A stretch of 64,000 bases of DNA from Escherichia coli (GTDB lineage: Bacteria > Pseudomonadota > Gammaproteobacteria > Enterobacterales > Enterobacteriaceae). Below are positions 3,215 to 54,648 of this stretch, piece by piece. The position numbers and the translations under genes are program-made. Numbering within the stretch: position 1 is the stretch's first letter; each line of letters opens with the position of its first letter. Under the pieces are notes generated by a model. It was not told where the DNA came from. It did no database searches and saw nothing but the letters and a program-made list of their open reading frames with translations. The stretch is from assembly GCF_003991155.1 (NCBI RefSeq), contig NZ_CP031293.1, one strand, 5' to 3'.

Positions 3215-4222
3215 ATGGCAATTTATACCCGAACAGGTGATTCAGGAAGTACGTCTTTATTTACCGGACAGCGCGTCAGCAAAACTCATCTACGTGTCGA
3301 AACCTATGGCACGCTGGATGAACTGAACGCGACACTCAGTCTGTGTTATTGCGCCACCGCCATCGAAAGCCATCGCATCTTACTGGAAGCCATTCAACAA
3401 CAGATATTTTGGTTTAGCGCCGAACTCGCCAGTGAAAGCGAACAGCCGTCAGCGCAGCAGCGTTACATCGGTACGGAAGAAATTGCCGCGCTGGAAAACG
3501 CGATCGATAGCGCAATGAACGCCGTCCCCCCGGTTCACAGCTTCATTCTGCCTGGTCGATGTGAAGCTGCAAGCCGCATGCATTTCGCCCGCACGGTGGC
3601 TCGACGGGCTGAAAGACGTCTGGTTGAACTGACAACAGAAACCACCGTCCGGAATGTTTTGCTGCACTATATCAACCGACTTTCCGATTGCCTGTATGCC
3701 CTCGCCCGCGTGGAAGACAACGTTGCTCATCAAAACCTGATGATTCAGGAAATCACAAAACGTTATCACGAAGCCAACCACACACCAGCATTGAAGGAAC
3801 GCACAATGCCGCTCACTTTTCAGGATCTTCACCAGCTCATTCGTAGTGCGGCAATGCGCGCAGATGAACTGCATATTCCCGTTGTCATCAGCATTGTTGA
3901 TGCCAACGGAACAGAAAGTGTTACCTGGCGGATGCCTGATGCCCTGTTGGTCAGCAGTGAACTGGCACCGAAAAAAGCCTGGACCGCCGTGGCGATGAAA
4001 ACGGCAACCCACAAACTTGCTGATACCGTGCAACCCGGCGCGCCGCTTTACGGGCTCGAAAGCCATATGCAAGGCAAAGTCGTCACTTTTGGTGGCGGCT
4101 TCCCCCTCTGGCGTGACGGAAAATTGCTTGGCGGGCTTGGCATCAGCGGCGGTAGCGTTGAACAAGACATGGATATTGCCCAAAGCGCAATGGCGGCAAT
4201 TAACGTGGGAGTAAACCAATGA
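3215..4222 (+). CDS. pduO: ATP:cob(I)alamin adenosyltransferase with C-terminal DUF336-like domain
   Basis: 335 aa; PduO-type N-terminal domain (MAIYTRTGDSGSTSL) plus C-terminal domain. Confidence 0.75.
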   Translation: MAIYTRTGDSGSTSLFTGQRVSKTHLRVETYGTLDELNATLSLCYCATAIESHRILLEAIQQQIFWFSAELASESEQPSAQQRYIGTEEIAALENAIDSAMNAVPPVHSFILPGRCEAASRMHFARTVARRAERRLVELTTETTVRNVLLHYINRLSDCLYALARVEDNVAHQNLMIQEITKRYHEANHTPALKERTMPLTFQDLHQLIRSAAMRADELHIPVVISIVDANGTESVTWRMPDALLVSSELAPKKAWTAVAMKTATHKLADTVQPGAPLYGLESHMQGKVVTFGGGFPLWRDGKLLGGLGISGGSVEQDMDIAQSAMAAINVGVNQ

Positions 4223-5604
4223 ATAACTCTGAATTAGAAACACTGATCCGCAATATTCTGCGTGAGCAGCTTGCCCCCGCTACGCAACGAGCGCAAAGAA
4301 ACGCTATTTTCCAGACTGTTGATGAAGCGGTCTGCGCAGCGCACCAGGCCTTTTTACGCTTTCAACAGTGCCCGCTTAAAACCCGTAGCGCCATTATCAG
4401 CGCCATTCGCGAAGAATTAATGCCCCGCCTTACCGAACTGGCAGAAGAAAGCGCCAGTGAAACAGGGATGGGAAATAAAGAGGATAAGTATCTAAAGAAC
4501 AAAGCAGCACTCAATAATACGCCAGGAATTGAAGATTTAACCACCACTGCACTAACCGGTGATGGTGGCATGGTTTTGTTTGAATACTCCCCGTTTGGGG
4601 TTATTGGCTCGGTCACGCCAAGCACCAACCCCACGGAAACCATCATTAACAACAGCATCAGCATGCTGGCAGCAGGTAATAGCGTCTACTTCAGTCCACA
4701 CCCGGGAGCCAAATACGTTTCGTTAAAACTGATTACCACAATCGAAGACATCGCGTTTCGCTGTAGTGGCATTCACAACCTGATCGTTACCGTATCTGAA
4801 CCGACCTTTGCCGCCACCGAACAGATGATGGCGCACCCTAAAATCAGCGTTCTGGCGATTACCGGCGGTCCGGGGATCGTCGCCATGGGAATGAAAAGTG
4901 GCAAGAAAGTGATTGGTGCCGGTGCGGGTAACCCTCCGTGCATCGTCGATGAAACGGCGGATATTGTGAAAGCCGCCGAAGATATCATCAACGGCGCTTC
5001 ATTTGATTACAACCTGCCGTGTATCGCTGAAAAAAGCCTGATTGTCGTGGCATCAGTGGCAGAGTATTTAATTCAGCAGATGCAAAGTTTTGGCGCGCTT
5101 CTTCTTAACTATGAGCAAACGGAGAAATTGCGTGCAATTTGCCTGCCAGACGGTAGCGCCAACAAAAAACTGGTTGGGAAAAGCCCATCAGCCTTGCTGG
5201 AAGCGGCAGGCCTCCCTTTGCCCGCAAAAGCGCCGCGCCTACTGATTGCTGTTGTCGACGCCAATGATAGTTGGGTTACTTGTGAACAACTGATGCCAAT
5301 GCTGCCCATTGTGAAGGTCAACGATTTTGATAGCGCTCTCGCCCTGGCGTTGAAAGTGGAAGACGGCTTGCACCACACGGCAATTATGCACTCGCAGAAC
5401 GTCTCACGGCTCAACCTTGCCGCGCGCGTTATGCAAACCTCAATCTTTGTCAAAAACGGCCCCTCTTGGGCGGGTATTGGCGTCGGCGGCGAAGGCTTTA
5501 CGACCTTTACTATTGCAACACCGACCGGAGAAGGGACAACGTCAGCACGGACTTTTGCCCGCTCACGACGCTGTGTGTTAACCAGCGGCTTTTCAATTCG
5601 CTAG
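4219..5604 (+). CDS. pduP: CoA-acylating propionaldehyde dehydrogenase
   Basis: 461 aa aldehyde dehydrogenase family; operon position. Confidence 0.8.
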   Translation: MNNSELETLIRNILREQLAPATQRAQRNAIFQTVDEAVCAAHQAFLRFQQCPLKTRSAIISAIREELMPRLTELAEESASETGMGNKEDKYLKNKAALNNTPGIEDLTTTALTGDGGMVLFEYSPFGVIGSVTPSTNPTETIINNSISMLAAGNSVYFSPHPGAKYVSLKLITTIEDIAFRCSGIHNLIVTVSEPTFAATEQMMAHPKISVLAITGGPGIVAMGMKSGKKVIGAGAGNPPCIVDETADIVKAAEDIINGASFDYNLPCIAEKSLIVVASVAEYLIQQMQSFGALLLNYEQTEKLRAICLPDGSANKKLVGKSPSALLEAAGLPLPAKAPRLLIAVVDANDSWVTCEQLMPMLPIVKVNDFDSALALALKVEDGLHHTAIMHSQNVSRLNLAARVMQTSIFVKNGPSWAGIGVGGEGFTTFTIATPTGEGTTSARTFARSRRCVLTSGFSIR

Positions 5605-11871: not shown

Positions 11872-13044
11872 TCAGGCCTTATGGTGGAAATAATCACTCA
11901 GCCGGGAAAACATGCTGCCTTCCCCGACAGATTCCAGGGTAACCAGCGGCCAGTGCGCCACCTGTTTATCACGGTCGTAAAGTTCAATTTCCCCTACCCG
12001 CTGATGGGCGCTAATTGGCGCGGTGAGTTCTTTACCATCAAGGGTATATTTGGCTTTGATATGTGGAATTTCGGCTTTCGGTAGCACCATCCAGAACTCT
12101 TGTTCCGTTCCCAGGGCGATATTTTCTTTATCGCCATACCAGATGCGTTCCGTACCAACCTTTTTCCCACGGTGCAAAATTTGCACCGTAGTAAAGTTTT
12201 GTTGCCCCCAACGCAGTAATTTTCTTGCCTCTTCCTCACGACCTTTTGCGCTGTCAGCCCCCATTACCACTGCAATGAGACGACGCTGCCCATCTACAGC
12301 CGAAGCAATGAGATTAAACCCGGCACCAGAAGTATGACCCGTTTTCAGGCCGTCAACATTCATGGTTTTATCCCACAATAACCCGTTACGGTTTTGCTGG
12401 GTGATACCGTTCCAGGTGAGGCTTTTCTCACTGTACATATGATAAAACTCGGGCTCGCCGTGGATGATAGCGCGAGAAAGCACAGCTAAATCATAAGCCG
12501 AGCTATGCTGGCCAGGTGCATCCAGACCATGCACTGTTTCAAAATGCGTATCCTTGAGATGCAGCTTCTCGGCATAGTTGTTCATCATTTCAACAAACTG
12601 CCGTTGCCCACCGGCAATATAGTCAGCCAGAGCAACACAAGCGTCATTTCCGGAATCCACAATTAAACCACGGCTTAAATCACGTACCGATACGCGATCG
12701 CCCTCTTTCAGAAACATCAGTGAAGAACCGACAAACACCGGATTATCTTTCGCCCACGCATCGCGCCCCACGGTGACAATATCGTCTGGCGTAATGCGAT
12801 GACTATCGATAGCACGATCCACGACATAGCCCGTCATCAGCTTTGTCAGGCTGGCGGGATTGCGCTGTTGATGCTCATTACCCGCGGTGAGAATCTGACC
12901 GGTGGTGTAATCCATCAATACCCAGGACCCGGCATGAATCTCTGGAGGCTGAGGTGAAAAAGGAATGTTTTCCGCCGCAAAACCAGACGATAAATTAAAA
13001 ACGAACAAAGAAGCAGCAATAATAAGACGGCGTTTCAACAGCAA
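11872..13044 (-). CDS. dacD: D-alanyl-D-alanine carboxypeptidase DacD (PBP6b)
   Basis: 390 aa with signal peptide and SLTK/SGN motifs. Confidence 0.9.
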   Translation of the reverse strand: MLLKRRLIIAASLFVFNLSSGFAAENIPFSPQPPEIHAGSWVLMDYTTGQILTAGNEHQQRNPASLTKLMTGYVVDRAIDSHRITPDDIVTVGRDAWAKDNPVFVGSSLMFLKEGDRVSVRDLSRGLIVDSGNDACVALADYIAGGQRQFVEMMNNYAEKLHLKDTHFETVHGLDAPGQHSSAYDLAVLSRAIIHGEPEFYHMYSEKSLTWNGITQQNRNGLLWDKTMNVDGLKTGHTSGAGFNLIASAVDGQRRLIAVVMGADSAKGREEEARKLLRWGQQNFTTVQILHRGKKVGTERIWYGDKENIALGTEQEFWMVLPKAEIPHIKAKYTLDGKELTAPISAHQRVGEIELYDRDKQVAHWPLVTLESVGEGSMFSRLSDYFHHKA

Positions 13045-13238
13045 ACCCTCAGGTGTTTCAAATAGCTGTTCTTTTTACGGAAATACTTATGAACTGGCTG
13101 GAATAAAGTGCAAGAAAATGTGACTACTATCTCATTTTTATCTGACATGATCTGTTGCCACTCGCTGCCAAATTGTCGCGCTAAAGCTGATTAGCACGGT
13201 GATATTTGATACTCTGGCAGACAGCAGAAACAACGGAT

Positions 13239-13306
13239 TTAACCTAATGATGAATGACGGTAAGCAACAATCTACCTTTTTGTTTCACGATTACGCGCAA
13301 CACCCC
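13239..13306 (+). pseudogene. sbcB: Displaced native 5' end of sbcB (first ~16 codons) left at prophage left junction
   Basis: ATGATGAATGACGGTAAGCAACAATCTACCTTTTTGTTTCACGATTACG encodes MMNDGKQQSTFLFHDY, then diverges into phage DNA and stops. Confidence 0.6.
13275..13287. repeat. attL core (13-bp identity with attR)
   Basis: TTTCACGATTACG identical to 53257-53269; flanks are imperfectly similar. Confidence 0.6.
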
Positions 13307-13348
13307 TGAGAACCGCCATAAACAAGGGTTTCATGATTTGTGATTTTA

Positions 13349-13375
13349 GTTTGGTACGCAATTTGGTACACAACA
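13349..13375. promoter_or_regulatory. Candidate integrase arm-type binding sites (left arm)
   Basis: Tandem TTTGGTACGC / TTTGGTACAC motifs, same motif repeated near the right junction. Confidence 0.4.
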
Positions 13376-13814
13376 CAATTTTCACTTCAGCGGGTAGTCA
13401 TCAAACTCACCATAACGCACTTCGTTGATGATGTACGTGATCACCAAAAATATCGCATCCGGACTAGTTCCATCTTCATGCGCAGGCATATGTTCATGCC
13501 TACCTGTCTGCAAACCAGTAATAAGCCATTACAGGGTGATAGTGATGCATCAACTACGTTAAGCGCAGAGAAATGATGCAGTGGTGGGCGGATTGGCTTG
13601 ATGAAAAGGTGGAGTGATCCACCTTAACCACTATCGAAGAGCACAAAGCCTTGCAATCCAGTGCAAAGCTTTGTGTGTCTCAGTTTTGTTTCATAGGTAA
13701 TCATGCGTTCACTACGATGCAAGAATCCATACCAAATTTTATTTAAAACTCACAAATACACTAGATAAAAACAATCCCGCAGTTTTCATGCGGGATATAC
13801 TGCATTTATTGCAA

Positions 13815-16292
13815 CTACATTGCCATTAATATAAACATAGCCAATTCGTCATAACGAATTCCGTAGCGTCCACCTGCTTTTTTTACAAGAATCATATTTC
13901 CTGTTTTATATTGAGAATAAATTTTCTCACCTGTATCAGGATCTGTGCTCTCTTCAGTTATCACCTCTTCATCCCATACGTCTGGCCATTCATCGTAACA
14001 CCAAAAAGCATATTGCTCAGGATTTAAACCATGCTTTCTAAGAATATCTCCTACGGTTTGAGCGCCAACTCCAAAATGATACCTTGATAACTCCAATCCT
14101 TTAAAATTAATCGACTCATTAAACCTGAACTTGCATATAATTCCCTTTATTTCCAGCGCAGCATCACGCTCTGCCTGAGTAATGTCATATATTGTTTTAA
14201 GTGTTTCATCTGATGTGCTTATAGTCCCGGATGCAGAATAAATCTGAGCCCATCTAAATGATGGTGCACCAAGAGATTTGCTGTTATCAATAATTGGTGA
14301 AAAATTACCTTTAATGGCAATATTTCCAGAGTCGCCGAATATATTAATAACTGTAGAGTCATCACCATGGTTTTTTACGCTTAAGTTTCTTGATAAAATA
14401 TTTATATCTTTGTTATACCCACTAACATTAATCCATCTTTTACCATCAATGTGATACCCGTAAATATTTCCGTTTGATTGTTCGTCAGGTGACTCTCTAA
14501 GAACAATAGCATCTACTCCAGACGACCATTGTATTTTTGTATCTGTAGGCCTCCAGTTCTTTATAATGAACGAACCATCAGTAAACTCCGTTTTTATTTG
14601 TCTATTGTCTACAAATGCGTCTCTTGGTTTAAACTCACTTGTGTTAACGCTGCTCTGAAGATCAGAAGCAAAAAATCTAAGATTTCCTGTATAACCCTGA
14701 GTCTCGGTCAGGTTATACGCAATCATAATTCCATTTTCAAACTCAGATGATGTTATTTTAACATCACGGCAATCACCAAAAATGCAATTTCCTTTATCAA
14801 ATGTTGTTTGAGCTTTGAATTTATCAAACCTTAAATTACGAACAGGGAAACCATCAACCTCTAATGCAAAGGATGCATGAAGGCCAAAGTATTCTGATGG
14901 CTTACCTGATGTATGATCAAGAGTAGTGGCTACTGTATTCTCAAAAACAGTCCCGCTAAAATTATTACCAATTGACGGAAACCTGATTACACTTATTGTA
15001 CCTTGTATTTCAGGAGAAATACCAGATAGTGTGATGTTAGTTCCATCAAATGATGCATCTGAATACGTATATACTGATTCACTGCCAGCAATTTTAAACT
15101 GTTTAACTGAAGTTATTCTCATCGACTTTTTATGTTTAAATGTCACTGAGCTTTCAGTATTACTTACAAGATCAATCTGAGGGCTATTCCTTATCGCGAT
15201 TCCTGACTGGACATAAACGTTATTAAAGTGCGTTTTTTCAGGATTTCCCTTCATTGAAAGGCTCCCGTCATTTTCTGTCAGTAGTAGTCCTTTTACCCTC
15301 CAATAGCCGACAATCTGTACGTTATCAATAACTGAATCACAGCTATCGTATACATGCAACCCTATATCCCAGTTATCACCCAATGAATAAGAATCAGGGT
15401 TATTGTATCCTTCAATACCATTTTTACTTACCATTATTCTCAGATTGCGTAACTGTGATGCCCTGTTGATACTAACAGCTACGCTCATGGCTTTTGGTGT
15501 AGCAGGAGTAACACCTACAGAATCTTCATTCGTAAACTCAGTGAACTTACAAGATATCCCTTCAACAATTTTAACCGGTCTTTCATTAGAGATGTTAAAA
15601 AAATATTTGTTTTTTTCTCCATCACCAGTAAATACAAGATGGGTTCCTTTACTCCAACTTTTTAATAATCTTTCAGGCGCTGGTCTATATGTATCCCAAT
15701 AATCAATGCCAGATCCAACCAGTGAACACCCCTCAGGAATGTTAATATTCTTCTTGATGATGCATATTCCTTCCGGAATTGTTATAACCGACCTTCCAGA
15801 GTTTAAAGCTTTAATAAAAGCATCTGAATCATCTGTTTCCCCATCTATTTTTGCTCCCCACCCTCTAACATCTCCACAATCTCTCCATCGTGCCATCTGC
15901 AACTCAGGATATTTTTTAGCGCCATCTGGATCTTCTAATTGCTGCCGTAGCTGATCGGGGTCATACTTCAGCACATTAGGAAAATAGAACTGCTGCGCAC
16001 CATATGCATCATAAACAGCCATAGAATGGCCTTGCACAGTTACAAACTTGGCTATTTGCCCGTTATATACCGGGTAACCAGCAGCGTTAATGATGATTGG
16101 TTGCGAAACAGGAACGTGAGAGCCATCTTCGTTCTCCACATAAACCTGAATCTGGTTTTCAGGATTTACAGGGTCAGTGTCAATTTTACCGATATAAATT
16201 TTGCCATTGGCAACCGCTTTAAAAGAACGTGCCATAGTGAAGAGTTGAGAAGGCATACTCACTACAACATTGGCATTTATCGAATCTGTCAT
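13815..16292 (-). CDS. Tailspike: P22 gp9-like head-binding N-domain, divergent receptor-binding domain, C-terminal intramolecular-chaperone-like domain
   Basis: 825 aa; N-terminus resembles P22 tailspike; SDETLK motif about 150 aa from C-terminus. Confidence 0.85.
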
Positions 16293-26263: not shown

Positions 26264-27559
26264 TCACGCGGTCTGGTTAGGCAGACCAACACCAATTGCC
26301 TCTGGCCGTACAGCACATGCTGAATACCACACAGCAATACGGCACTTACCAGACAGAGTATTGATATCACCCTGCGTTGCGAAGATGCCGTTAACACCAA
26401 TACCAGGAATGCTGAAGGAAGACGTTTTCATGCCAGCAAACAGTTCATGGGTTACCGGAATCGGCTGAGACAGCAGGCGGATTGAGTCATCAGCCCAGAA
26501 CACGTTAGCGGTGGTTGTTGCCACGTTCAGAACGTTTACCGTAGTGGAATCAGCAAGAGAGGTGTTTACGTTAGCGTAAGCCTTCTCTTCTTTTGTCAGT
26601 GACGCGTCATCCAGTGCAATCGGCTTCGGCGTGATTTCGATGTGAGTACTATCGATCACACGGGTGATTGAGAAAGTTGCATCATCAGTCAGCACGTTCT
26701 TCGCCATCTGAGACAGGAATTTCACACCAGTGAAACTGATTTTGTCGCCGCGCTTAAATCCGGTGGTGGAGGATACAGTCACCGTTGCAACACGGTTGTC
26801 GACGTTCTCTTTGTTACCATCGGTATCAAGGGTGTATGCCTGCGGCTTAAACTTCTGCGCGCCAGAAACAGTTACACCAGTAGCGGTTGACTTGGTAACT
26901 GCCGGAAGTTTCGGTGAGCGAAGAATTTCATCAAAGCCAGCAATCTGACGCTGAATAGTACCGTTGTGATACGCATCTTCAGGAACGCGCCCGAAGATGT
27001 CACCATCTACAAGATTGCGGCCTGCTTTGCGGTAATCGTCAGGGTTCAGGAAGTAACTGATACCCATGTCGCGGTTGAGTTCGCGGGAGAACATCAGTCG
27101 CTCTGCATCAGACACAAAATCCCAGCCAGACAGGCCAGTAGATGGACCAATTGCGCGGGTATCGTGAACAACAAGTGAGCCCATTTCGGTTGCCTGTTTG
27201 GCAATTGCTGACTCAATGTTATTCGCCAGTTTTTTGGCGGATGCCTGGATGCGGCGACGGTAAGAACGCTCATCACGCAGGTCATCTGCACGAAGCTCGA
27301 AGAAATCGTTATCCGGATCGCCCATGTTGCACTTCACGGAGAGTTCCAGAATCCCGGTTGCGTTGCCAGTTAAATCCCAGCCAGTCTGGGTTGGCGCTTC
27401 CTGCTCAACAGGCATCCACACGGTGTTGCTTGAACGCTGCATGGATTCTGCCGGAGGGGTGTATTTTGTCACTTTGGACGCCATTGGCGTCAGGTTCTGG
27501 ACGGTTTCGATGATTTCATCCAGAGCATACGTGACCAGTTGACCTTCATTTAATGCCAT
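26264..27559 (-). CDS. Major coat protein (P22 gp5-like)
   Basis: 431 aa, [19 protein letters not shown]. Confidence 0.95.
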
Positions 27560-40252: not shown

Positions 40253-41629
40253 TCATACGTCCGCCCCTTGTGCATATCGTCTGCCACGCGCAGCAGGCGC
40301 ATTTGATGCTGTGCAAATCTGTCTGGCTTCATCCTGGTCACATGCAACAAAGTGTCCGTTACAGAACCGCTGGTAAACCGTACCAAGTGAGCCAAAACGG
40401 TTTTTCGTCACGATGATTTCAGCAAATGGCGCGGCGCTACTGTTCTCGTCATATACCGCTTCCCGATAGAGCATGATGATTGAGTCTGCGTCCTGCTCAA
40501 TGCTTCCTGAATCACGCAAATCTGCGTTTGTCGGGCGTTTGTTTGGTCGCTTCTCAACATCGCGCGAAAGCTGACTCAGGGAGATAACAGGCGTTTTCAG
40601 GTCTTTCGCCATCGCCTTCAGGCTTCCGGAGATGTGAGCAATTGCGAGGTCGTTGCGGTCTGCTTTCGGCTTCTCAATCAGGCCAAGATAATCCGCCATG
40701 ATTAGAGACAGGTTTGGATTTTCCTGTTTATGCCGTTCTGCGATTGAGCGTATTTCTTCGACCGATAACCGCGAGGCATCGACTACCCATACATCCAAAT
40801 CTGCAAGCTGACTCATGCCGTTAGCAACACGCGCCCAGCCTTCGTCATCCATCGATGCAGGATTTCGCAGTACGCTAACCGACATCCTCCCGGCGTTGGC
40901 AATGCTTCGCTCTGCAATCTGCAATGCGCTCATTTCCATCGAGAAAATCAACACTCCGCGCCGGACGTCAGAACCGGGAATAACGCGGCTTGCAACGCCT
41001 TCAGCAATCTTCAGCGCCAGCTCGGTTTTCCCCATACCAGGACGAGCGGCGATAATCACCAGGTCTTCCGCGTTCATCCCTCCGGTGATGGCGTCAAGTT
41101 CTTCGATTCCGGTCTTCAGGGTATCTGACTCTTCTCCGTTCCTCAGACGCCTGTCAAGCGTGTCAGTGTAGTCAGTGATGATTTCCCCTAACCGTACAGG
41201 TTTAACCTCGTCACGGGGCTTTCTGATGGCTGAAAGACGCTTTACAAGCTCGTCCATCGCCTGACTCGATGTATCGATGGTTCCGCTCTGAATTGGTTCA
41301 CGCATTTCATCCATGATTTCCAGCACCAGACGGCGGTGATAGTTATCCGCGACCATTCCGGCATATCCTTTCAGGTTTGCGGCACTCGGGCAGTTTTTGC
41401 TGGTCATCAGGATTGACGTGAAATGCTCCTCTCCGCACGCCTCGGCAACCATCAGCGCGTCGATTAGGTTTCTGTTTCTCGCCTGCTTGCGGATAACCTC
41501 GAAGGCTTTCCGGTAGAGCGGAATTGAAAACGCTTCCGGCTCCAGTGTTGCCAGAACGTCGCTGGCGGTTGGAGTTAATCCACCAATCAGCAGACCGCCG
41601 ATAACGCTCGCTTCGATATCCTGTCTCAT
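40253..41629 (-). CDS. Replicative DnaB-like helicase (P22 gene 12-like)
   Basis: 458 aa, Walker A GMGKT and DnaB C-terminal motifs. Confidence 0.9.
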
Positions 41630-42573
41630 GCAATCCCCCTGTCTGCAAACTTCCCTTCCCGTACTCCCGTTAACGAATCTTCCCTCAGCAGGTAATCAAA
41701 ATCTGCCGTCCATCCCGTGTCGTTGTCTCCGAAGTAAAACGGCTTGGCCTGATGCACAAACGCCCTGACATACGCTCTGAAACCGTCCACGTTTGGCGTT
41801 TTCAGTTGCGGGATGATTTTCTTCAGGCGGCGTTTGCGTTTCTCGTTGACCGCAACAGCGTGTGGCAGTCTGTCACCGACTTCGGTGTTGTAAGCGTTCA
41901 GGAAGGATTCGTAGTCGATTCGTTCTGCCTTGCGACGTTCAGGTTTAACCTGCCCATCGCCTCCCCCATTGGGGGGTAGGGGGGTATTATTTATATTCTT
42001 GTTAATACCTTCTTGTTCATGATGTGCGGTTGTTTGTGCGGCTTCATGTGCGCTTTCATGTGCGGCATGTACGCTGAATGCCGCGCCATTACTGGCTTCA
42101 TCATGTGCGGCATCATGTGCGGTTGTTTGTGCGGCTTCATGTGCGGGTGAACTGTCCATTTTTTGAGCATATTCATGGTAATTTGTGATGGTTATCACAC
42201 GACCTTTTTGCTTCTCCCCATCAATGGAGATCATCCCCTCTTTCACAAAAACCTGAAGCATCCGCTCAACCTGATCACGGCTTGCCGGCTTGCCATGCCT
42301 GTCGCATAACTGAAGACCTAAATCAGCTGCTGTCACAACCAGTTGACCGGGTTGCAGATGCCATTCATGACCTTTGAAATTCGCTTTGTATGGCTTTCTG
42401 GCGGCATTCAGGAGAAGGTTTTCCCACAGGGTGCGAAGATAAACATCTTTCGCCCATGACTGTTTCAGAATGCTCCGGTACAACGGAATGTAACCAGTTT
42501 TCTGGTTCTCCATCCTGTTGCTCCTGCGCTCGTGTGCGGCGCTGAAATCGTAGATTTTTGCTGTATTGCTCAT
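41626..42573 (-). CDS. Replication initiator (P22 gene 18 / O-like) containing ori iterons
   Basis: 315 aa; repeat-encoded His/Ala-rich tract; overlaps helicase start. Confidence 0.8.
42018..42150. repeat. Replication-origin iterons inside the initiator gene
   Basis: Repeated (T)CATGTGCGG units; ~30-bp block ATGTGCGGTTGTTTGTGCGGCTTCATGTGCG present twice. Confidence 0.6.
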
Positions 42574-51691: not shown

Positions 51692-51883
51692 ATGACCGAT
51701 ACCAGCCTGATTCCTGAGAAAGAAGTGATGAACAAGCTCGGTGTTTCATCACGTCAGACAATCTGGAACTATACCAAACGGCACGGATTTCCGAAGCCAG
51801 TCAGAACCCACCCCAAATCATACCTTCGTGAAGCTGTTGAAGGGTGGATTCTTAACGGTGGCGTTAATCAGAAATGCTCCTGA
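51692..51883 (+). CDS. xis: AlpA-family excisionase / DNA-binding regulator
   Basis: 63 aa with HTH (LGVSSRQTIWNYTKRHGFPKP); adjacent to integrase. Confidence 0.7.
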   Translation: MTDTSLIPEKEVMNKLGVSSRQTIWNYTKRHGFPKPVRTHPKSYLREAVEGWILNGGVNQKCS

Positions 51884-53042
51884 TGTGCCAGAACAATTTA
51901 TCAGCGTGAAGCTCATACGCTTTGCGCTGAGCCTCTATCCAGTCGTGTTTATTGTATACGGACATTATCCCGCCAAGTTCATGACCGAGCATTCGCTCAG
52001 TAACATGAGGCTCGACATTCATCTCGGACAGACGTGTAACAAGCGTTCTTCTGAAATCGTGTGTTCGCCAGTAACCTAGATCCATCCCTCCCCTTATTCT
52101 ATTTACGAATCGGTTGGCTGCAGCGATGCTGATCGGTTTGTTTATGTCTTCTCCAGGGAAAAGAACATCATTGTACGTTGTCATGGCCTTTTCGAGGAAA
52201 GGCTTAATTTGTTCGAAGATTGGACGGCGGATAGCATTACCCATCTTGCTATGCTCTTTCGGTACGGTCCATACGTTTTCCAGCAGGTCAAATTCTGTCT
52301 TTTTTGCCAGCCTAAGCTCTGAGAGCCTCGCCCCCCACAGCATAAGCATCTGATGAAGTAGCTTATTTGACGTAGACGCACGGCTTCTTTCAATAGCAAG
52401 CCAAATCTTAGCCAGTTCGTGATACGACAGTACACGATCCCCTACCTCAGCGCGGGAGCCGAAGTCCCTTGGTTGGATGCTCATAATTGCGCAACTATCT
52501 ATCAACTGACGCCGCATGCACCAACTTATTGCTGATCTTAGTTGACTTAGCACCTGCCTTGCTCGGCGTGGATTATCTCTTTCTTCTTCGGTAAGCAGGT
52601 CAACCCATTGCTTAACCGTGATAGAAGATGCCGGACGATTAGGGAAGGCGTCATGCATGCGCTTCATAACCGTTGATCGGTAAAGTGCCTGGGTCTTTTC
52701 TCTGAGAGTTGTAGAGACGTAGTTGTCGAACCAGTAGTCGAGACACTGGGCGACCGTCATGGAGTTCTCCACCTTCTCTTCAAAATAAGTGCGTGGATCC
52801 GTTCCTGAGAAATAGAGCTTTCGCAAGTCAGCAGTGATCTGTCTGGCATCCTTCAAAGACATGGATGGGTATCGACCAAGCCCAAGTCGATTAGGCTTGC
52901 CATGCCAGCGATAGCGGTACTGGAACTGGATGACCCCCTTCGGTGAAATTCGTACGCTGAGGCCATCGGCATCAGCCACTTCTTGTGGGCCCGAATATGG
53001 TTTACCATAAATAGTACGAAGTTTTGTGTCGCTTATAGCCAT
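51864..53042 (-). CDS. int: Tyrosine site-specific integrase
   Basis: 392 aa; C-terminal HDFRRT...LGH catalytic region; next to right junction. Confidence 0.9.
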   Translation of the reverse strand: MAISDTKLRTIYGKPYSGPQEVADADGLSVRISPKGVIQFQYRYRWHGKPNRLGLGRYPSMSLKDARQITADLRKLYFSGTDPRTYFEEKVENSMTVAQCLDYWFDNYVSTTLREKTQALYRSTVMKRMHDAFPNRPASSITVKQWVDLLTEEERDNPRRARQVLSQLRSAISWCMRRQLIDSCAIMSIQPRDFGSRAEVGDRVLSYHELAKIWLAIERSRASTSNKLLHQMLMLWGARLSELRLAKKTEFDLLENVWTVPKEHSKMGNAIRRPIFEQIKPFLEKAMTTYNDVLFPGEDINKPISIAAANRFVNRIRGGMDLGYWRTHDFRRTLVTRLSEMNVEPHVTERMLGHELGGIMSVYNKHDWIEAQRKAYELHADKLFWHIRSISD

Positions 53043-53050
53043 AAATAATA

Positions 53051-53097
53051 TTTGGTACGCTCAGAAATAATGGTTTGGTACACATCTGGTACACAAT
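53051..53097. promoter_or_regulatory. Candidate integrase arm-type binding sites (right arm)
   Basis: Repeated TTTGGTACGC / TTTGGTACAC / TGGTACACAA motifs between int and core. Confidence 0.4.
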
Positions 53098-53223
53098 ATC
53101 ACATGGACAACAGCGCACAGTAAACAACTATATTTGACGTTCGTAGACATACTCAGGTGAAAAAATGGTTGTTTTTCGAGTTATAACAGACAGTTAATTA
53201 ACTACAGTGGACAATGCTAGACA

Positions 53224-54648
53224 ATGACAGACACAGATAAACAACCTACCTTCCTCTTTCACGATTACGAAACCTTTGGAACGCACCCCGCGTTAGATCG
53301 CCCTGCACAGTTCGCAGCCATTCGCACTGATAACGAATTCAATGTCATCGGCGAACCCGAAGTCTTTTACTGCAAGCCCGCGGATGACTATTTACCCCAG
53401 CCTGGAGCAGTATTAATTACCGGTATTACCCCGCAGGAGGCACGGGCGAAAGGAGAAAACGAAGCCGCGTTTGCCGCCCGTATTCACTCGCTTTTTACCG
53501 TACCGAAGACCTGTATTCTGGGCTACAACAATGTGCGTTTCGACGACGAAGTCACACGCAACGTTTTTTATCGTAATTTCTACGATCCTTACGCCTGGAG
53601 CTGGCAGCATGATAACTCGCGCTGGGATTTACTGGATGTTATGCGTGCCTGTTATGCCCTGCGCCCGGAAGGAATAAACTGGCCTGAAAATGATGACGGT
53701 CTACCGAGCTTTCGCCTTGAGCATTTAACCAAAGCGAATGGTATTGAACATAGCAACGCCCACGATGCGATGGCTGATGTGTACGCCACTATTGCGATGG
53801 CGAAACTGGTAAAAACGCGTCAGCCACGCCTGTTTGATTATCTCTTTACCCATCGTAATAAACACAAACTGATGGCGTTGATTGATGTTCCGCAGATGAA
53901 ACCCCTGGTTCACGTTTCCGGAATGTTTGGGGCATGGCGTGGCAATACCAGCTGGGTGGCACCGCTGGCGTGGCATCCTGAAAATCGCAATGCCGTAATT
54001 ATGGTGGATTTGGCAGGAGACATTTCGCCATTACTGGAGCTGGATAGCGACACATTGCGCGAGCGTTTATATACCGCAAAAGCCGATCTTGGCGATAACG
54101 CCGCCGTTCCGGTTAAGCTGGTGCATATCAATAAATGTCCGGTACTGGCCCAGGCGAATACGCTACGCCCGGAAGATGCCGACCGACTGGGAATTAATCG
54201 TCAGCATTGCCTCGATAACCTAAAAATTCTGCGTGAAAATCCGCAAGTGCGTGAAAAAGTGGTGGCGATATTCGCGGAAGCCGAACCGTTTACGCCTTCA
54301 GATAACGTGGATGCACAGCTTTATAATGGCTTTTTCAGTGACGCCGATCGTGCAGCAATGAAAATTGTGCTGGAAACCGAGCCGCGTAATTTACCGGCAC
54401 TGGATATCACTTTTGTTGATAAACGAATTGAAAAACTGTTGTTCAATTATCGAGCGCGCAACTTCCCGGGGACGCTGGATTATGCCGAGCAGCAACGCTG
54501 GCTTGAGCACCGCCGCCAGGTCTTCACGCCAGAGTTTTTGCAGGGCTACGCTGATGAATTGCAGATGCTGGCACAACAGTATGCCGATGACAAAGAGAAA
54601 GTGGCGCTGTTAAAAGCGCTTTGGCAGTACGCGGAAGAGATTGTCTAA
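53224..54648 (+). CDS. sbcB: Exodeoxyribonuclease I; first ~11 codons supplied by the prophage
   Basis: 474 aa; N-terminus MTDTDKQPTFLFHDYETFG differs from the remnant MMNDGKQQSTFLFHDY at attL. Confidence 0.9.
   Translation: MTDTDKQPTFLFHDYETFGTHPALDRPAQFAAIRTDNEFNVIGEPEVFYCKPADDYLPQPGAVLITGITPQEARAKGENEAAFAARIHSLFTVPKTCILGYNNVRFDDEVTRNVFYRNFYDPYAWSWQHDNSRWDLLDVMRACYALRPEGINWPENDDGLPSFRLEHLTKANGIEHSNAHDAMADVYATIAMAKLVKTRQPRLFDYLFTHRNKHKLMALIDVPQMKPLVHVSGMFGAWRGNTSWVAPLAWHPENRNAVIMVDLAGDISPLLELDSDTLRERLYTAKADLGDNAAVPVKLVHINKCPVLAQANTLRPEDADRLGINRQHCLDNLKILRENPQVREKVVAIFAEAEPFTPSDNVDAQLYNGFFSDADRAAMKIVLETEPRNLPALDITFVDKRIEKLLFNYRARNFPGTLDYAEQQRWLEHRRQVFTPEFLQGYADELQMLAQQYADDKEKVALLKALWQYAEEIV
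53257..53269. repeat. attR core (13-bp identity with attL)
   Basis: TTTCACGATTACG inside sbcB codons 12-16. Confidence 0.6.

Follow-up and report, generated by a model that had tools for sequence, protein, structure and literature searches.

The interval of about 520 bp between the attL core and the stop codon of the tailspike gene (positions 13296-13814 of the 64-kb window, by which the whole stretch of DNA analysed is meant) most probably marks the left border of an sbcB-integrated, P22-like prophage and is made up of stacked leftovers of successive module exchanges. We put the probability of this reading at roughly 0.85. Nothing about it is unusual for a junction between phage modules: it is composed of putative integrase-binding arm DNA, the end-fragments of three dead genes and two facing, predicted terminators, and as such it is a fully explainable mosaic of a kind already known. 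Table 1 gives the segments, their boundaries and the structure of the attachment site as observed. The window is E. coli chromosome, and its host context, dacD-sbcB, is annotated in identical genomes. As judged by a domain search, the prophage is P22-like, since the tailspike carries the P22 head-binding domain and a P22 antirepressor adjoins it. Identical DNA is already present in RefSeq with the pseudogene annotated.

An ORF survey found no intact gene in the interval, and all ORFs of at least 30 aa in it are short, which agrees with the original prediction of a non-coding stretch between attL and the tailspike gene. That prediction had further proposed that the stretch might consist purely of attachment-site arm and terminator sequence. 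Both the arm repeats and the tailspike terminator are indeed present, but the description is incomplete, as ~260 bp are made up of recognisable gene fragments, namely the 3' part of a umuD/humD-like gene, the 3' end of an IntS-type gene and eight terminal codons (counting the stop) of a gene for a small membrane protein.

Table 1. Features at the two ends of the prophage, with positions in the 64-kb window
Feature	Position	Strand	Remarks
dacD	11872-13044	minus	host gene ahead of the sbcB start (13247)
host sbcB stub	13247-13309	+	native start and first 16 codons (MMNDGKQQSTFLFHDY) fused to phage DNA; stop after 20 codons
attL core (crossover region)	13283-13295		TTTCACGATTACG, 13 bp; identical 13-mer at 53259-53271
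P' arm of attachment site	13296-13381		two tandem TTTGGTACRCAA repeats
arm-type repeat TTTGGTACGCAA	13350-13361		in tandem with the 13362-13373 copy
arm-type repeat TTTGGTACACAA	13362-13373		in tandem with the 13350-13361 copy
UmuD/HumD-like S24 peptidase pseudogene, 3' part	13382-13556	-	~residues 46-129 of the HK140 protein; frameshifted, N-terminus missing
IntS (KplE1/Sf6/HK620-type) integrase 3' relic	13557-13617	+	last 18 codons (KRREMMQWWADWLDEKVE) and TGA stop
spacer, 197 bp	13618-13814		99.5% identical, ungapped, to argW prophages with intact intS
14-bp-arm hairpin, then U-rich tract	13642-13693	+	hairpin 13642-13675; U-rich tract TTTTGTTT (13684-13691)
small membrane-protein gene relic (phrog_1443)	13712-13735	-	last 7 codons (LVWILAS) and stop
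predicted intrinsic terminator of the tailspike (late) transcript	13764-13796	-	8-bp GC-rich stem 13774-13796, then T-run
tailspike gene, P22-type, 825 aa	13815-16292	minus	PF09008 Head_binding, E 1.2e-65; "phage tailspike" in identical genomes; bounds the interval
partner end of attachment site	51692-53271		xis candidate, integrase, P arm, sbcB promoter/5' end, attR core
AlpA-like excisionase candidate	51692-51883	+	attR side
2851-type tyrosine integrase, 392 aa	51864-53042	-	attR side
P arm	53053-53094		three TGGTACRC repeats; attR side

Attachment site and integrase in sbcB

The 13-bp core TTTCACGATTACG recurs at the far end of the prophage as the attR core, and host sbcB sequence lies outside both copies. 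Read on the other strand, this core is CGTAATCGTGAAA, which has been published as the attP core of 2851 and Sf101, two phages with their insertion point in the 5' end of sbcB (PMC4159516). The attL assignment made in the original prediction is therefore confirmed by the second copy of the 13-mer beside the integrase gene and by its identity with the published core. A search for tRNA and tmRNA genes found none within the window, and hence the attachment site is not tRNA-based.

At attL, the sbcB frame breaks past TTTCACGATTACG and meets a stop codon 14 bp on, and a complete sbcB gene, the first codons of which come from the phage, is located at 53224-54648. At attR (53100-53300), a substitute promoter region and the 5' coding end come from the phage, so that the gene is intact, and the N-terminus of the product is changed to MTDTDKQPTFLFHDYE in place of MMNDGKQQSTFLFHDYE. 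The original sbcB promoter and the 20-codon stub (MMNDGKQQSTFLFHDYAQHP followed by a stop) are left behind at attL, aimed into the prophage.

The arm-type integrase repeats that had been predicted in the interval are present as a tandem pair in the P' arm (Table 1). Their common motif, TGGTACRC, has seven copies in the 64-kb window, five of which are in the same orientation and within ~220 bp of the att cores, at 13352 and 13364 in the P' arm and at 53053, 53076 and 53087 in the P arm; this clustering has a binomial P of ~4e-10. The same arm repeats are found in attP of Sf101, HK140, mEp234 and EC.P3, bar a single A/G change in Sf101 at the variable R position. When the left part of attR is joined to the right part of attL, the free-phage attP of HK140, mEp234, Sf101 and EC.P3 is rebuilt at 93-95% column identity. 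The integrase encoded on the attR side includes the domains PF13356 (Arm-DNA-bind_3, E 4.4e-18) and PF00589 and is 98.5% identical to the Sf101 Int. Thus, attL has the make-up of a tyrosine-integrase site on the lambda paradigm, with paired cores at the host/phage boundary, a rebuilt attP, an adjacent heterobivalent, arm-binding integrase and, in both arms, repeats distinct from the core. When both arms were scanned with the IHF consensus (WATCAANNNNTTR, at most one mismatch), the P' arm showed no match and the P arm a single weak one; the arm architecture is to that extent incomplete, although such a scan says little for or against IHF binding.

The P' repeats are the predicted binding sites of the 2851-type integrase, which would contact them through its N-terminal arm-binding domain. 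At excision, these and the three P-arm repeats, together with the integrase and the AlpA-like protein, would recombine the 13-bp cores.

The integration module of the window is like that of 2851, Sf101, mEp234 and HK140 in its identical core, in P and P' arms that are 87-95% identical, and in the same insertion in the 5' end of sbcB with restoration of the gene by a phage-supplied 5' end. However, the tailspike module to which it is attached in the window is a different one. Sf101 carries oacB, whereas the window carries none, and HK140 has an intact umuD-like gene where the window has a relic with an extra 67-bp deletion.

Gene remnants between the attachment site and the tailspike gene

The first remnant past the P' arm is that of the umuD/humD-like gene. 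Residues 46-129 of the HK140 UmuD-like protein, which matches PF00717 and phrog_811, align by tblastn to positions 13385-13566 in two frames, with a combined E of 9e-14. The relic keeps its stop codon at 13382-13384. Its ~45 N-terminal residues are replaced by intS sequence, and no intact frame with a start codon was found. As compared with Sf101, mEp234 and EC.P3, a further 67 bp are deleted at 13514/13515, and the deletion is flanked by the microhomologies TCTGCAAA and TCTACAAA. In other strains, identical DNA is labelled by RefSeq (PGAP) as a frameshifted and incomplete S24 peptidase/HumD pseudogene.

The longest ORF of the interval (13340-13576, plus strand, 78 aa) lies antisense to this pseudogene, and it is hardly credible that it represents a real small gene. 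An ORF with the same start position is open for 78-82 codons in M160133, EC11, Sf101, mEp234 and EC.P3, and the counterparts in two phage records are annotated as hypothetical proteins (Sf101 orf17 and BTP1 gp17). However, the ORFs of the interval had no family match in Pfam or PHROG, nor did the Sf101 and BTP1 counterparts of the 78-aa ORF. Its start is a GTG inside the arm-type repeats, and it has only 49 codons in HK140, in which the umuD-like gene that it opposes is intact. Because of the 67-bp indel, the C-terminal half is wholly different in the window and in Sf101; many of the substitutions are non-conservative, and the ORF is not called by RefSeq. Belonging to no family and cut short where the umuD-like gene is intact, it was rejected as a shadow ORF.

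In BTP1 (locus L009, 3001-3181), two relics occur in the reversed order, the hairpin segment being followed by a umuD-like 3' fragment. The pair sits between int/attP and gtrA and overlaps the hypothetical gene gp17 (STMMW_03931), which may be a spurious gene call.

The second remnant belongs to an integrase other than the one that the prophage encodes. All 18 residues of the IntS relic are identical to residues 368-385 of K-12 IntS, the integrase of the KplE1/CPS-53 prophage. No full-length IntS ORF was found, only the last 18 codons and the stop codon being left. Homology to argW prophages with an intact intS begins exactly at 13557. From this position to 14300, the window is 98.9-99.5% identical, with no gaps, to the argW prophages of E. 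coli W4, FDAARGOS_1256 and NCCP12480, in which an intact intS converges directly on the same tailspike gene, with 197 bp from stop to stop as in the window. These are the three prophages inspected among the 27 genomes that carry this tailspike end, most of which have the cassette-free form. As the same 197-bp spacer is collinear in W4, FDAARGOS_1256 and NCCP12480, the right part of the interval is assigned as the int-tailspike junction of an argW-type phage. As read from the alignments, an argW-type junction is cut inside intS at 13556/13557 and joined there to a 2851-type att module.

In the argW-type recombination module, attP is located between int and xis, and the cargo, if any, between int and the tailspike gene (Kapi1 preprint; PMC2951348). 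Like the argW junctions of P22-like phages (KplE1/Sf6/HK620/Kapi1 type), the window is collinear from 13557 on, with both hairpins and the tailspike gene. In contrast to them, it keeps only 61 bp of intS and is integrated by an unrelated integrase elsewhere on the chromosome.

With a query that included the arm and the umuD-like segment, approximately 2,800 of the 5,426 complete E. coli genomes searched gave a match to at least a portion of the interval; among the genome hits sampled, the commonest match was the intS 3' end with its hairpin.

The third remnant, 24 bp long, lies between the two hairpins. The corresponding proteins of EC11, JEP4, 19AR1724 and SW070919 all end in IGCLLVWILAS and match phrog_1443 at E ~1e-53. 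In these four relatives, the gene is located between the 14-bp-arm hairpin and the tailspike gene, and the homology of the window to their loci stops at 13735. The phrog_1443 product is a conserved hydrophobic protein of 95-99 aa, encoded in several P22-like prophages directly downstream of differing tailspike genes, that is in the cargo position. The genes are found at 4613-4900 of locus L002, 3156-3455 of L008, 3070-3357 of L011 and 3156-3443 of L012, all on the minus strand.

The cargo position is also that of serotype-conversion genes. The gtrABC genes of P22 and BTP1, oac of Sf6 and oacB of Sf101 are found at the equivalent place, past the attachment site and before the tailspike gene, and the hairpin segment upstream of them is the same. 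To this extent the original prediction was correct in associating this position with the conversion genes of related phages: relatives have oacB (Sf101), gtrA/gtrC (BTP1) or gtrA-gtrB (K-12 CPS-53) at this point. Unlike these loci, the window holds neither a conversion gene nor a fragment of one. The accompanying suggestion, that a cassette for O-antigen conversion (gtrABC or oac, as in P22, BTP1 or Sf101) was lost from the interval and left a scar, is very improbable. It draws on the finding that the segment 13557-13694 lies directly upstream of oacB in Sf101 and of gtrA in K-12 CPS-53, and near gtrA/gtrC in BTP1; moreover, the 24-bp membrane-protein relic shows that some cargo gene was lost at the site, and EC.P3, which has K-12-like gtrA-upstream sequence but no gtr gene, indicates that such scars exist in the family. 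However, no gtr or oac coding or upstream sequence was found in the interval, the DNA matches being to flanks common to Sf101, K-12 and BTP1, and past the hairpin the window follows the sequence type of JEP4 and W4, not the gtrA-upstream type of K-12 and EC.P3. Furthermore, the spacer has the same length and 99.5% identity in prophages in which an intact intS faces the same tailspike gene, and hence the cassette-free arrangement is an established genome form. As judged by the remnants, the genes lost at the interval are the umuD-like gene, an earlier integrase gene and the small membrane-protein gene, and not gtr or oac.

In EC.P3 (locus L006), the sequence after the hairpin, at ~3997-4042, is of the type that precedes gtrA (yfdG) in K-12 CPS-53, and no gtr gene is present before the tailspike gene. 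Here, in contrast to the window, a gtr cassette does seem to have been lost and to have left a scar.

Hairpins, terminators and the small-RNA alternative

A terminator scan of positions 13000-14000 gave a single terminator-like site, which is on the minus strand and follows the tailspike gene. Its arms, ATCCCGCA and TGCGGGAT, form eight pairs, five of them GC, and are followed by TTGTTTTT with the tail TGTTTTTATC, as in an intrinsic terminator; the predicted folding energy is -15.1 kcal/mol (z = -2.76). A terminator hairpin had been predicted at 13781-13804; the element exists, but its stem is on the minus strand and ~7 bp further left. In another phage (H156), it accompanies the tailspike 3' end, with homology from ~13765 on.

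The inverted repeat predicted near 13650-13690 is also real but larger than had been thought. The arms of CACAAAGC...GCTTTGTG, each of 14 nt (13642-13655 and 13662-13675), are complementary at 13 of 14 positions and enclose a 6-nt loop. The plus-strand structure has a predicted energy of -20.6 kcal/mol (z = -2.97). This hairpin begins 25 nt past the stop codon of the intS relic and is found 25-30 nt past intact intS in K-12 and in dozens of viral contigs. It belongs natively to the 3' end of integrase genes of the intS type, and it is a probable weak intrinsic terminator on the plus strand. It is not of the canonical form: the stem is stable, but the U-run TTTTGTTT begins only 3 nt past the bulged, extended stem, the scan made no call there, and a U-run is missing altogether from the lambda and 434 counterparts.

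A third structure spans the stop codon of the relic intS at 13606-13625; this hairpin (AAGGTGGA gtga TCCACCTT) has eight perfectly paired positions and the loop GTGA (-12.4 kcal/mol, z = -3.5). It is not conserved in the K-12 copy.

The original prediction had also allowed for a small RNA in the interval, and this proposal is unsupported: no Rfam match, no promoter-like site and no covariation of the hairpin across 55 variants were found. The corresponding reading, that the conserved segment of intS 3' end and hairpin is a functional small RNA or another structured RNA, for example a sib-like integrase retroregulator, is highly unlikely. A search of positions 13000-14000 against Rfam at a permissive E-value returned only a chance snoRNA hit (E 0.63), and a scan of the same positions for sigma-70-like promoters found none where 2.9 would be expected. 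In favour of a selected RNA, the 14-bp-arm hairpin is stable whichever strand is folded (z = -3.0 and -4.1), it is kept beside at least four unrelated integrase types (IntS, lambda-type, 2851-type and BTP1-type), and its single mismatch is repaired in a few variants. Yet in the 55 distinct variants, drawn from viral contigs, E. coli prophages and lambda, many substitutions break pairs, the paired fraction (85.8%) equals that of the shuffled control (85.7%), and covariation likewise equals the shuffled expectation (0.038 versus 0.036). Hence, selection on the RNA structure of the hairpin is not demonstrated.

Retroregulation of the sib type was considered because the hairpin adjoins tI in lambda. 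The hairpin of the window (13640-13677) has 37 of 38 nt in common with lambda 27473-27510 (int-sense strand), and its position in lambda, 434 and JEP4, like that of sib, is on the far side of attP from int. It is distinct from tI/sib proper, which lies 28 nt upstream in lambda. In the window, the integrase gene is transcribed away from attP (core at 53259), and no int transcript reaches the hairpin. Therefore, sib-like retroregulation is excluded in this prophage and was rejected. The copies of the hairpin are located at 974-1011 of locus L014 (lambda, = 27473-27510) and at 2584-2617 of locus L015 (phage 434), and the lambda record has no annotation there.

Origin of the junction and recurrence of the intS relic

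In the mosaic-junction reading, the ancestor would have been an argW-integrating phage with the order intS → ← tailspike, the integration module of which was replaced by an sbcB-specific one; this direction of the exchange is what we infer. The 2851-type module already holds the same intS 3' relic, and this common relic would have served as homology for the exchange. A 4.3-kb query from the right end, directed at the other boundary of the swap, gave at most 75% coverage in 3-7 pieces, the early-left region being too mosaic.

The P' arm of attL and the pair of facing transcription stops, and only these two, are likely to be active today. The stops, with their predicted terminator activity, would keep the late, minus-strand transcription of the tailspike gene apart from transcription on the plus strand. 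The orphaned sbcB promoter is the only evident plus-strand source in the lysogen; assuming that it is transcribed into the prophage, the old integrase hairpin with its U-rich tract would catch the transcripts. The remainder, consisting of the umuD/humD-like gene of the 2851-type att module, 61 bp of intS and 24 bp of the membrane-protein gene, would be inert.

The intS relic with its hairpin also occurs elsewhere. It is found at the attP-proximal edge of the cargo in phage 434 and in O55:H7 CB9615, ahead of nleD-type effector genes, and likewise in JEP4 and 19AR1724 at the lambda attachment site; the JEP4 integrase (356 aa) is unlike IntS. All 2851-type elements include the relic and the hairpin, BTP1 has the hairpin without the IntS coding relic, and lambda too has only the hairpin. 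Such recurrence is consistent with integration modules having been replaced repeatedly, one of the crossovers falling at or close to the 3' end of intS.

A further reading is that the 61-bp intS relic and its hairpin are a linker kept, on the attP side of the cargo, in lambdoid phages with four or more unrelated integrases, where it would act as a homology patch for module exchange, as an insulating terminator, or as both. This is unlikely, and the lack of covariation in the hairpin argues against a selected RNA structure. If it were true, whole integration modules, and hence chromosomal insertion sites, would be swapped through the homology patch; alternatively or in addition, the terminator would insulate the att region from cargo transcription. 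The integrase relic and hairpin that recur beside many integrases are the only part of the interval that might repay study, in relation to phage mosaicism.

For annotation, the labels appropriate to the interval are attL P' arm, umuD-like pseudogene, relic of an integrase gene and terminators, and not small-RNA candidate or conversion locus. The interval also provides a worked example of a change of insertion site in a temperate phage, with the seam readable to the base (13556/13557).

Elsewhere in the window, at 42018-42145, five overlapping copies of a 35-nt repeat with a ~12-nt unit (CATCATGTGCGG / TTGTTTGTGCGG) are located in the ORF 41626-42573 (minus strand). This cluster has the look of an iteron array, as at the replication origin of lambdoid phages, inside the O-like gene.
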